From: Escherichia coli
GTDB lineage: Bacteria; Pseudomonadota; Gammaproteobacteria; Enterobacterales; Enterobacteriaceae
Length of the DNA: 64,000 bases
Direction: 5' to 3' (one strand)
NCBI RefSeq assembly: GCF_003334765.1
Contig: NZ_QOWT01000008.1
Positions 5,003 to 60,957 of the stretch are shown piece after piece. The position numbers were made by a program, and so were the translations under genes. A model generated the notes under the pieces. It worked only from the letters and a program-made list of their open reading frames with translations. It was not told the DNA's origin and did not search any database. Each line of letters begins with the position of its first letter. Positions within the stretch are counted from its first letter, which is position 1.

Positions 5003-5032
5003 AAAACCCTCTGTTACTACAGAGGGTTTTTT
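5003..5032. terminator. Bidirectional rho-independent terminator between convergent guaA and yfgI
   Basis: AAAACCCTCTGT-tact-ACAGAGGGTTTTTT: 8-bp stem flanked by an A-run on one side and a T-run on the other. Confidence 0.75.
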
Positions 5033-45129: not shown

Positions 45130-45190
45130 TTCCTGAGACAAAGTACAAACAGCAAGAACCCGCTGAGCAGGTTCTTAATCGGAAAGTTGA

Positions 45191-45222
45191 AAAAGGCGAC
45201 ACATTGGCATGTCGCCTTTTTT
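45191..45222. terminator. Bidirectional terminator between ypfM and convergent acrD
   Basis: AAAAAGGCGACA-cattggca-TGTCGCCTTTTTT. Confidence 0.7.
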
Positions 45223-57558: not shown

Positions 57559-59838
57559 ATGGATGACCAGTTAAAACAAAGTGCACTTGATTTCCATGAA
57601 TTTCCAGTTCCAGGGAAAATCCAGGTTTCTCCAACCAAGCCTCTGGCAACACAGCGCGATCTGGCGCTGGCCTACTCACCAGGCGTTGCCGCACCTTGTC
57701 TTGAAATCGAAAAAGACCCGTTAAAAGCCTACAAATATACCGCCCGCGGTAACCTGGTGGCGGTGATCTCTAACGGTACGGCGGTGCTGGGGTTAGGCAA
57801 CATTGGCGCGCTGGCAGGCAAACCGGTGATGGAAGGCAAGGGCGTTCTGTTTAAGAAATTCGCCGGGATTGATGTATTTGACATTGAAGTTGACGAACTC
57901 GACCCGGACAAATTTATTGAAGTTGTCGCCGCGCTCGAACCAACCTTCGGCGGCATCAACCTCGAAGACATTAAAGCGCCAGAATGTTTCTATATTGAAC
58001 AGAAACTGCGCGAGCGGATGAATATTCCGGTATTCCACGACGATCAGCACGGCACGGCAATTATCAGCACTGCCGCCATCCTCAACGGCTTGCGCGTGGT
58101 GGAGAAAAACATCTCCGACGTGCGGATGGTGGTTTCCGGCGCGGGTGCCGCAGCAATCGCCTGTATGAACCTGCTGGTAGCGCTGGGTCTGCAAAAACAT
58201 AACATCGTGGTTTGCGATTCAAAAGGCGTTATCTATCAGGGCCGTGAGCCAAACATGGCGGAAACCAAAGCCGCATATGCGGTGGTGGATGACGGCAAAC
58301 GTACCCTCGATGATGTGATTGAAGGCGCGGATATTTTCCTGGGCTGTTCCGGCCCGAAAGTGCTGACCCAGGAAATGGTGAAGAAAATGGCTCGTGCGCC
58401 AATGATCCTGGCGCTGGCGAACCCGGAACCGGAAATTCTGCCGCCGCTGGCGAAAGAAGTGCGTCCGGATGCCATCATTTGCACCGGTCGTTCTGACTAT
58501 CCGAACCAGGTGAACAACGTCCTGTGCTTCCCGTTCATCTTCCGTGGCGCGCTGGACGTTGGCGCAACCGCCATCAACGAAGAGATGAAACTGGCGGCGG
58601 TACGTGCGATTGCAGAACTCGCCCATGCGGAACAGAGCGAAGTGGTGGCTTCAGCGTATGGCGATCAGGATCTGAGCTTTGGTCCGGAATACATCATTCC
58701 AAAACCGTTTGATCCGCGCTTGATCGTTAAGATCGCTCCTGCGGTCGCTAAAGCCGCGATGGAGTCGGGCGTGGCGACTCGTCCGATTGCTGATTTCGAC
58801 GTCTACATCGACAAGCTGACTGAGTTCGTTTACAAAACCAACCTGTTTATGAAGCCGATTTTCTCCCAGGCTCGCAAAGCGCCGAAGCGCGTTGTTCTGC
58901 CGGAAGGGGAAGAGGCGCGCGTTCTGCATGCCACTCAGGAACTGGTAACGCTGGGACTGGCGAAACCGATCCTTATCGGTCGTCCGAACGTGATCGAAAT
59001 GCGCATTCAGAAACTGGGCTTGCAGATCAAAGCGGGCGTTGATTTTGAGATCGTCAATAACGAATCCGATCCGCGCTTTAAAGAGTACTGGACCGAATAC
59101 TTCCAGATCATGAAGCGTCGCGGCGTCACTCAGGAACAGGCGCAGCGGGCGCTGATCAGTAACCCGACAGTGATCGGCGCGATCATGGTTCAGCGTGGGG
59201 AAGCCGATGCAATGATTTGCGGTACGGTGGGTGATTATCATGAACATTTTAGCGTGGTGAAAAATGTCTTTGGTTATCGCGATGGCGTTCACACCGCAGG
59301 TGCCATGAACGCGCTGCTGCTGCCGAGTGGTAACACCTTTATTGCCGATACATATGTTAATGATGAACCGGATGCAGAAGAGCTGGCGGAGATCACCTTG
59401 ATGGCGGCAGAAACTGTCCGTCGTTTTGGTATTGAGCCGCGCGTTGCTTTGTTGTCGCACTCCAACTTTGGTTCTTCTGACTGCCCGTCGTCGAGCAAAA
59501 TGCGTCAGGCGCTGGAACTGGTCAGGGAACGTGCACCAGAACTGATGATTGATGGTGAAATGCACGGCGATGCAGCGCTGGTGGAAGCGATTCGCAACGA
59601 CCGTATGCCGGACAGCTCTTTGAAAGGTTCCGCCAATATTCTGGTGATGCCGAACATGGAAGCTGCCCGCATTAGTTACAACTTACTGCGTGTTTCCAGC
59701 TCGGAAGGTGTGACTGTCGGCCCGGTGCTGATGGGTGTGGCGAAACCGGTTCACGTGTTAACGCCGATCGCATCGGTGCGTCGTATCGTCAACATGGTGG
59801 CGCTGGCCGTGGTAGAAGCGCAAACCCAACCGCTGTAA
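57559..59838 (+). CDS. maeB: NADP-dependent malic enzyme (malic enzyme domain fused to PTA-like domain)
   Basis: 759-aa [26 protein letters not shown].... Confidence 0.95.
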
Positions 59839-59854
59839 TTTTTTTAACTCTCAC

Positions 59855-59880
59855 GCTTACCCTGAATATTCAGGGTAAGC
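59855..59880. other. Perfect 26-bp palindrome GCTTACCCTGAAT|ATTCAGGGTAAGC after maeB
   Basis: Read directly from sequence 17 nt after the maeB stop; no downstream U-tract; lies at the distal edge of the eut upstream region. Confidence 0.5.
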
Positions 59881-60129
59881 AGTTTAGCTGCAATATATTA
59901 GTAAAGCTTATTACTGAGTTTGCGAATAATAAAAAAAAGCAGTCTATATAATATCTCGATATTATTTTATTTATATTCATGCGTTGCATATGAAAGTTTA
60001 TGCACCACAGCGAATATCTCTCCATTCTTAGTGATCTACCTCACCTTTTAAACGCGCTTGCCGAATTTTGTTATTTACTCTGACGAAAAATTGTCACGAT
60101 ACACGAAAGTTTTTCACAGGCGGCGACTC

Positions 60130-60465
60130 ATGGATAAAGAACGCATCATTCAGGAATTTGTGCCCGGCAAACAGGTCACACTGGCGCATCTCATCGCGCA
60201 TCCCGGTGAGGAACTGGCGAAGAAAATCGGCGTTCCGGATGCGGGCGCAATTGGCATTATGACGCTAACTCCCGGCGAAACGGCGATGATCGCCGGTGAT
60301 TTAGCGCTGAAAGCCGCTGATGTGCATATCGGTTTTCTCGACCGATTCAGCGGTGCATTGGTGATTTATGGCTCGGTGGGCGCAGTAGAAGAAGCGTTAT
60401 CACAAACCGTCAGCGGTTTAGGTCGCTTATTAAATTATACGCTTTGTGAAATGACCAAAAGTTAA
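60130..60465 (+). CDS. eutS: Ethanolamine-utilisation microcompartment shell protein EutS
   Basis: ORF track 60058..60465; start reset to [21 protein letters not shown] (111 aa). Confidence 0.9.
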
Positions 60466-60477
60466 TACGAGGCATTC

Positions 60478-60957
60478 ATGAAACGAATTGCGTTTGTGGG
60501 TAGCGTCGGGGCAGGAAAAACAACGTTATTTAATGCGTTGCAGGGGAATTATACCCTCGCCAGAAAAACACAGGCCGTGGAATTTAATGATAAGGGCGAT
60601 ATTGATACGCCGGGTGAATATTTTAACCATCCCCGCTGGTATCACGCCTTAATTACCACGCTACAGGATGTAGACATGCTGATCTATGTCCATGGCGCAA
60701 ATGACCCGGAAAGTCGGTTGCCTGCCGGGTTGCTGGATATTGGCGTCAGCAAACGGCAAATCGCCGTCATCAGTAAAACGGACATGCCAGATGCTGACGT
60801 CGCCGCAACGCGAAAGTTATTGCTTGAGACGGGCTTCGAAGAGCCGATTTTCGAGCTAAACAGCCACGACCCGCAAAGCGTGCAGCAACTGGTGGATTAT
60901 CTGGCATCTCTCACCAAACAGGAGGAAGCAGGTGAAAAAACTCATCACAGCGAATGA
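60478..60957 (+). CDS. eutP: Ethanolamine-utilisation P-loop acetate kinase-like protein EutP
   Basis: 159-aa ORF with Walker A GSVGAGKTT. Confidence 0.9.
   Translation: MKRIAFVGSVGAGKTTLFNALQGNYTLARKTQAVEFNDKGDIDTPGEYFNHPRWYHALITTLQDVDMLIYVHGANDPESRLPAGLLDIGVSKRQIAVISKTDMPDADVAATRKLLLETGFEEPIFELNSHDPQSVQQLVDYLASLTKQEEAGEKTHHSE

Follow-up and report, generated by a model that had tools for sequence, protein, structure and literature searches.

The perfect palindrome downstream of maeB in Escherichia coli is very probably an mRNA 3'-end hairpin rather than a DNA operator

A perfect 26-bp palindrome lies between maeB and the upstream region of the eut operon in Escherichia coli, and our analysis indicates that it is very probably the 3'-end or terminator hairpin of the maeB mRNA, a feature of the RNA and not an operator in the DNA. 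The window, meaning the whole 64,000-nucleotide (64-kb) stretch analyzed, is from E. coli K-12, with positions 59700 to 60200 being 100% identical to DH5alpha and matched in 5424 of 5426 complete E. coli genomes. In MG1655 (NC_000913.3), maeB is b2463, at 2576098-2578377 on the minus strand, and window position x therefore corresponds to 2576098-(x-59838). The eutS start is at 60130. Past the maeB stop come ~250 nt of untranslated RNA, and in the RefSeq annotation of MG1655 the interval between the two genes is empty. The parts discussed here are as follows.

57559 to 59838, + strand: maeB coding sequence, NADP-dependent malic enzyme (759-aa open reading frame, 100% identical to the DH5alpha gene annotated maeB)
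59839 to 59854, + strand: U-rich linker of 16 nt, UUUUUUUAACUCUCAC, from the stop codon to the stem (read from the sequence; variable among E. coli strains)
59855 to 59880, + strand: 26-bp palindrome and very probable maeB mRNA 3'-end hairpin, with an 11-13-bp stem and an AUAU loop (folding, conservation, and sense-only G·U changes)
59881 to 59890, + strand: 3' tail AGUUUAGCUG, site of the mapped maeB 3' ends, the dominant ones at 59888-59890 (PMC10687069, Supplementary Data 2-4)

The exact content of 59855-59880 is GCTTACCCTGAATATTCAGGGTAAGC, which consists of 13-nt arms with 100% complementarity and 0 nt of spacer. As the maeB open reading frame ends at 59838, the palindrome starts 17 nt past the TAA, and the description in an earlier, sequence-only reading of a perfect 26-bp palindrome between maeB and the eut upstream region is accurate in sequence, arms, and position. 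It is the sole perfect palindrome in the 64-kb window with arms of at least 8 nt. By a first-principles estimate, a random 64-kb sequence would be expected to hold ~0.001 such palindromes (64000/4^13), and 100 shuffles yielded none that matched, even when 3 mismatches were allowed. The palindrome is thus far beyond chance. The other perfect stems in the window (10-13 bp) all have noncomplementary loops, and several have T-runs and are terminator-like. Perfect 12-13-bp stems are found at 74-105, 5003-5030, and 45190-45221, two of them with A/T-run flanks of the bidirectional-terminator type; the one at 45190-45221 corresponds to the primary 3' terminus of ypfM, which stands next to maeB in the TRS table of PMC10687069.

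When read as + strand RNA, the palindrome folds at -19.5 kcal/mol (z = -4.7) into a stem of 11 bp capped by a 4-nt AUAU loop; among 200 shuffles, none was as stable. A stable, GC-containing hairpin is therefore present on the sense strand soon after the gene end, as is typical of intrinsic terminators. The - strand RNA forms an equivalent hairpin of -22 kcal/mol, and the stem lengthens to 12-13 bp in other strains and in relatives. No A-tract precedes the hairpin. The + strand tail, AGUUUAGCUG, has a UUU run and 4 U in its first 9 nt, whereas the - strand tail, GUGAGAGUUAAAAAAA, has no U-tract. The claim that neither strand carries a U-tract therefore holds for the - strand and is essentially right for the + strand, save for the short UUU. 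Measured against the U-rich ~7-9 nt that characterize intrinsic terminators, the K-12 tail AGUUUAGCU contains 4 U among 9 nt, at most 3 of them consecutive, and the tails of relatives have 5-6 U in 9 nt. The tail variants are AGUUUAG in K-12, GGUUUAG in the common form, GGUUUUCC, and, in E. whittamii, AUUUUUAU.

A simple consensus promoter/terminator scan called no terminator or promoter at the palindrome. An Rfam 15 scan of 59500-60500, with E values up to 10, returned chance-level matches only (best E = 2.3, with bit scores well short of the gathering thresholds); there were four matches, and in none does the hairpin serve as a structured element. Pairing of the U-run at 59839-59846 with the A-run at 59930-59937 was considered and rejected, as strains in which the U-run is broken keep the A-run, which lies beyond the mapped 3' end.

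Published 3'-end maps place the end of the maeB transcript directly after this stem. In an RNAtag-seq/Term-seq re-analysis (TRS, Nat Commun 2023, PMC10687069), a "Primary" maeB 3' terminus is listed on the minus strand at 2576046-2576055, a peak that converts to window positions 59881-59890. The dominant end, 2576046 or 2576048, falls at 59888-59890, which is 8-10 nt past the stem base at 59880; in vivo ends thus lie at about the distance, ~7-10 nt after the stem, seen with intrinsic terminators. Rows for the terminus stand in Supplementary Data 2 (two sheets) and Supplementary Data 3 (one sheet, probably the LB RNAtag-seq sheet, judging from its position in the file). These rows print exactly the palindrome hairpin, at -19.5 kcal/mol, and the maeB 3'UTR listed in Supplementary Data 4 is 53 nt long. 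The R statistic, defined as 1 minus local read-through, is 0.967, 0.989, and 1.0 for maeB, equivalent to a local read-through of 0-3%. Hardly any ends of steady-state RNA fragments lie just past the maeB terminus. Primary termini with a hairpin and a U-run of ≤3 are common in the same data, with talB, mog, dnaJ, and folA as examples.

The curated Term-seq 3'-end list of Adams et al. 2021 (PMC7815308), which is thresholded so that absence from it is not proof of absence, lists neither maeB nor eutS and contains no position within 2575900-2576069, so that not all studies report the maeB 3' end. The sequence-only reading had held that a lack of 3' ends at the site would speak against it. Since the terminus mapped in PMC10687069 is sharp, primary, and 8-10 nt after the stem, 3' ends are indeed present. 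Together with the 0-3% local read-through, this supports the suggestion of a weak or Rho-dependent terminator that insulates maeB from eutS. The terminus and its fold are already recorded in a supplementary table of PMC10687069, and no new concept is needed to account for them.

To follow the hairpin across strains and species, its conservation was compared at the level of DNA symmetry and of RNA pairing. In six divergent E. coli strains, the 26 bp are unchanged and the flanking bases vary. Most other E. coli strains have G instead of A at 59881, so that a 14th pair forms and the palindrome extends to 28 bp. A 30-nt query ending at 59880 matched 5246 of 5426 complete E. coli genomes (~97%) exactly over 28-30 nt, once per genome, in a search sensitive to near-complete copies only. 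A 45-nt query returned two "places" per genome, which we infer to be the palindrome matching itself on both strands. Species-representative genomes were scanned with the MaeB C terminus and, together with two BLAST searches, gave four informative variants.

Escherichia sp. MOD1 (L009): CGCTTACTCTGGATTATTCGGGGTAAGCG; sense strand -19.7 kcal/mol, antisense strand -8.8 kcal/mol
E. whittamii (L010): CGCTTACCCTGAGTAATTCGGGGTAAGCG; sense strand -20.7 kcal/mol, antisense strand -16.3 kcal/mol
E. coli SCU-172 type (L092): CGCTTACCCTGTTTATTCGGGGTAAGCG
L011: identical to the common E. coli form

A search for hairpins of the L009 type among genomes labelled E. coli found none, and the SCU-172-type variant turned up instead. 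In L009, L010, and L092, only 10-11 of 13 positions are Watson-Crick, i.e., palindromic, and the center is not self-complementary, so the two-fold symmetry and half-site conservation expected of an operator are not seen among these orthologous sites. In the lower 11 stem pairs, every variant substitution yields a wobble pair (U·G or G·U), and does so solely in the sense RNA of maeB; sense-strand pairing is 13/13 in both L009 and L010. There are no double-sided compensatory changes. The ~4 independent one-sided changes are all sense compatible, which on its own (p ~0.06) is suggestive and points in the same direction as the 3'-end data. Selection on the hairpin in the sense strand is thus supported, and the perfect palindrome looks like a derived, all-Watson-Crick form of an older stem that contained wobble pairs. 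The U-tract is better in relatives, with 4-5 consecutive U after the stem (GUUUUAUUG, AUUUUUAUA, and GUUUUCCUG).

The hairpin belongs to maeB and not to eut. In E. coli SCU-172, as in a few further genomes (L092:1493-3041), the variant hairpin follows maeB, and the next gene is an opposite-strand glycosyltransferase family 4 gene, not eutS. A 69-aa "hypothetical protein" that PGAP places on the minus strand across this L092 hairpin is probably a spurious call.

A closer look at other genera shows different hairpins in the same place. The Citrobacter, Klebsiella, Yokenella, Pseudocitrobacter, and Salmonella loci sampled have an unrelated GC-rich hairpin 14-20 nt past the maeB stop, GGCGCGGG-loop-CCCGCGCC in most loci, followed by T5-8 in most, though not all, of them; this combination marks a textbook intrinsic terminator. 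Kluyvera has yet another hairpin of the same kind after maeB. The other-genera terminators resemble that of K-12 in their distance from the stop, in the order of maeB then eutS in many loci, and in their presumed role, but differ in having an unrelated GC-rich stem and, in most loci, T5-8. As the stem sequences are unrelated, terminator turnover rather than homology is indicated, and the Escherichia hairpin, whose offset of 17 nt is the same, is the positional and presumably functional analogue of the maeB terminator of other genera. Unlike the other genera, Escherichia also has an extra AT-rich spacer of ~130-146 nt after the hairpin. In loci L037, L046, L051, L060, L063, L065, L067-L069, L073, L081, L082, and L086, the first 120 nt past maeB hold repeats: palindromic units of the form CCCTCTCCC...GGGAGAGGG, present repeatedly, in Enterobacter, Leclercia, Lelliottia, and Pluralibacter, and REP-like GCCGGATAAGCG elements in other species, so that different repeat families are found in one intergenic slot.

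In the mechanism that we propose, RNA polymerase would transcribe the palindrome 17 nt past the maeB stop and the nascent RNA would fold into a hairpin of 11-14 bp, with a predicted -19.5 to -22 kcal/mol, so that stable maeB transcripts would end 8-10 nt past the stem. The hairpin would thereby separate constitutive maeB transcription from the EutR-controlled eut operon ~250 nt on. The end itself would be formed by direct intrinsic termination, either factor independent or factor assisted, at a short and imperfect U-tract of the form G/A-UUU(U). The perfect symmetry of the DNA, including the AUAU center, would be incidental, the result of a stem that is Watson-Crick paired throughout and continues into the loop, and would owe nothing to protein recognition. 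In its GC-containing 11-14-bp stem, 4-nt loop, position 17 nt past the stop, ends 8-10 nt past the stem, very low read-through, and location between codirectional units, the maeB hairpin is like the weak-U-tract subclass of intrinsic terminators. It departs from intrinsic terminators in having UUU(U) only, preceded by A or G, in lacking an A-tract, and in not being called by the consensus scan.

A different route to the same end is Rho-dependent termination in the downstream untranslated, AT-rich spacer, followed by trimming by 3'-to-5' exonucleases (PNPase, RNase II) back to the hairpin, which would then be a protective cap and not the place where RNA polymerase stops. We regard this as the less probable origin of the end, albeit one to be taken seriously. 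An 8-10-nt single-stranded tail is also what stalled exonucleases can leave, and there are ~250 nt of untranslated RNA past the maeB stop. Dar & Sorek 2018 (PMC6061677) describe Rho-dependent transcripts that end precisely after stable stem-loops without U-tracts or A-tracts, and the anatomy of the maeB end fits that class as described there: a stable stem-loop, low U content (in K-12 a run of UUU only and 4 U in 9 nt), no upstream A-tract, and a precise steady-state end. The downstream sequence is less accommodating. Positions 59881-59980 contain 10 C and 12 G (22% GC), so there is no C>G bias of the kind reported for rut regions; judged by composition only, no C-rich, G-poor rut region lies downstream, and YC dinucleotides number only 9 in 146 nt. 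Supplementary file 2 of PMC7815308 lists no Rho-termination region near 2575900-2576069 or for eutS. The lack of downstream C>G enrichment, the lack of a Rho region in PMC7815308, and the better U-tract of relatives, with 4-5 consecutive U after the same stem, set maeB apart from the PMC6061677 class, and the orthologous positions in other genera are canonical intrinsic terminators. Because of the ends 8-10 nt past the stem, the U-runs of relatives, the terminators of other genera, the absence of C>G bias, and the absence of a listed Rho region, intrinsic termination is somewhat favored over Rho plus trimming within the hairpin reading. Under both routes, the hairpin would also shield the maeB mRNA 3' end from exonucleases.

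Two further accounts would give the palindrome a role other than marking the transcript end, and we consider each very unlikely. According to the one, it is an operator for a dimeric transcription factor that regulates eutS or acts as a roadblock to maeB read-through. Its perfect two-fold symmetry runs through the center, which an RNA hairpin does not need, it hardly varies within E. coli (5246 of 5426 genomes have an exact match), and a low-resolution RpoS-holoenzyme genomic SELEX peak (type B, old coordinate 2574144) lies between eutS and maeB (PMC5493296). That peak, along with general statements that EutR acts upstream of eutS, is all that a literature search for a regulator or binding site in the maeB-eutS spacer returned. 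We know of no operator consensus that the palindrome matches; the half-sites of Cra and ArgR are similar to it, but their spacing seems wrong, and the spacing of LexA and SoxR sites does not seem to fit either. In sister lineages the symmetry falls to 10-11/13 with an asymmetric center, and the changes keep the sense RNA stem only. The palindrome is present in one copy per genome, with no relaxed copies at ≤3 mismatches in the 64-kb window. It lies ~150 nt upstream of a block upstream of eutS that is shared across genera, is absent from the genera that share that block, and stays with maeB where eutS is not adjacent. An operator is unlikely because the symmetry is lost in relatives, the site is single copy, its location is wrong relative to the eut control region, and it persists with maeB; the proposal of a dimeric-regulator binding site accordingly finds no support, the DNA symmetry decaying in sister Escherichia while the RNA stem is kept. 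A variant of this idea, to which we likewise give very little weight, is that in E. coli sensu stricto the wobble stem was sharpened to a perfect 26-28-bp palindrome through a second, DNA-level role. Candidates for such a role would be binding of an uncharacterized dimeric regulator or a conditional roadblock/antitermination switch that lets maeB transcription read into eut. If true, a second role would explain why the perfect symmetry, center included, is fixed in ~97% of E. coli genomes.

According to the other account, the hairpin is a processing or regulatory element of the RNA. It could be a site for RNase III or RNase E, an sRNA derived from the 3'UTR, or an antiterminator through which maeB and eut are coupled under some conditions. 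The RNA structure is stable, and maeB and eut adjoin in many Enterobacteriaceae. Typical RNase III substrates, however, are longer than an 11-14-bp stem, no Rfam family reaches threshold (best E = 2.3), and the 3'UTR is only 53 nt and lacks a U-rich 3' end of the Hfq-binding kind. The literature searched held nothing specific to connect ProQ or Hfq with the maeB 3'UTR. There is also no conserved structure that competes with the stem, the 59839-59846/59930-59937 pairing failing to covary, and ethanolamine plus B12 induces the Eut proteins but not MaeB (PMC11334477). The earlier suggestion of an RNase site thus gains no support in the sense of cleavage, and the hairpin may act as a block to 3' exonucleases.

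With the palindrome read as the maeB 3'-end hairpin, the 3' boundary of the maeB transcription unit would be fixed, with a 3'UTR of 53 nt, which has little import beyond annotation. The maeB gene and the eut operon would be separate transcription units in K-12, which fits the noninduction of MaeB by ethanolamine plus B12 seen by proteomics (PMC11334477). The site is a small, clean illustration of two general points: perfectly palindromic DNA behind a gene usually reflects nothing more than an RNA hairpin, and unrelated hairpins can replace one another as terminators at one position between genera, as with the Escherichia type and the GC-rich type of Citrobacter, Klebsiella, and Salmonella.

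The remainder of the maeB-eutS interval has features of its own. The spacer from the hairpin to the conserved eutS upstream block, 59881-60026, is AT-rich, with 28% GC overall and 22% in the first 100 nt, and most of it (~130 nt) lacks a counterpart in Citrobacter and Klebsiella, where maeB and eutS are 158-160 nt apart versus 291 nt in K-12. In L011, part of the AT-rich spacer is missing (236 nt). An 18-bp near-palindrome, ATAATATC-TC-GATATTAT, lies inside the spacer at 59948-59965. The eutS upstream block itself, 60027-60129, is common to Escherichia, Citrobacter, Klebsiella, Yokenella, and Pseudocitrobacter; it begins ~147 nt past the palindrome and shares nothing with it. Read from the alignment, this block is presumably the main eut promoter and a putative EutR/CRP control region. 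At 60030-60045, it contains a CRP-site-like aGTGA-TCTACC-TCACc, followed by CTTGCCGAATTTTGTTATTTACTC. The RpoS genomic SELEX peak hints at a candidate constitutive sigma-S promoter within the maeB-eutS spacer (~59800-60130).

Several E. coli genomes carry IS1 insertions at or just after the hairpin, at positions orthologous to window 59879-59900. In one (L090:289-340), the IS1 end abuts GGGTAAG and the last palindrome base is replaced; in another (L091:289-350), IS1 follows AGTTTAG; and in a third (L005:2136-2900), IS1 lies after maeB, with eutS lost and eutP truncated. This suggests that the AT-rich spacer is a hot spot for IS1 insertion, which would disconnect or delete the eut promoter.
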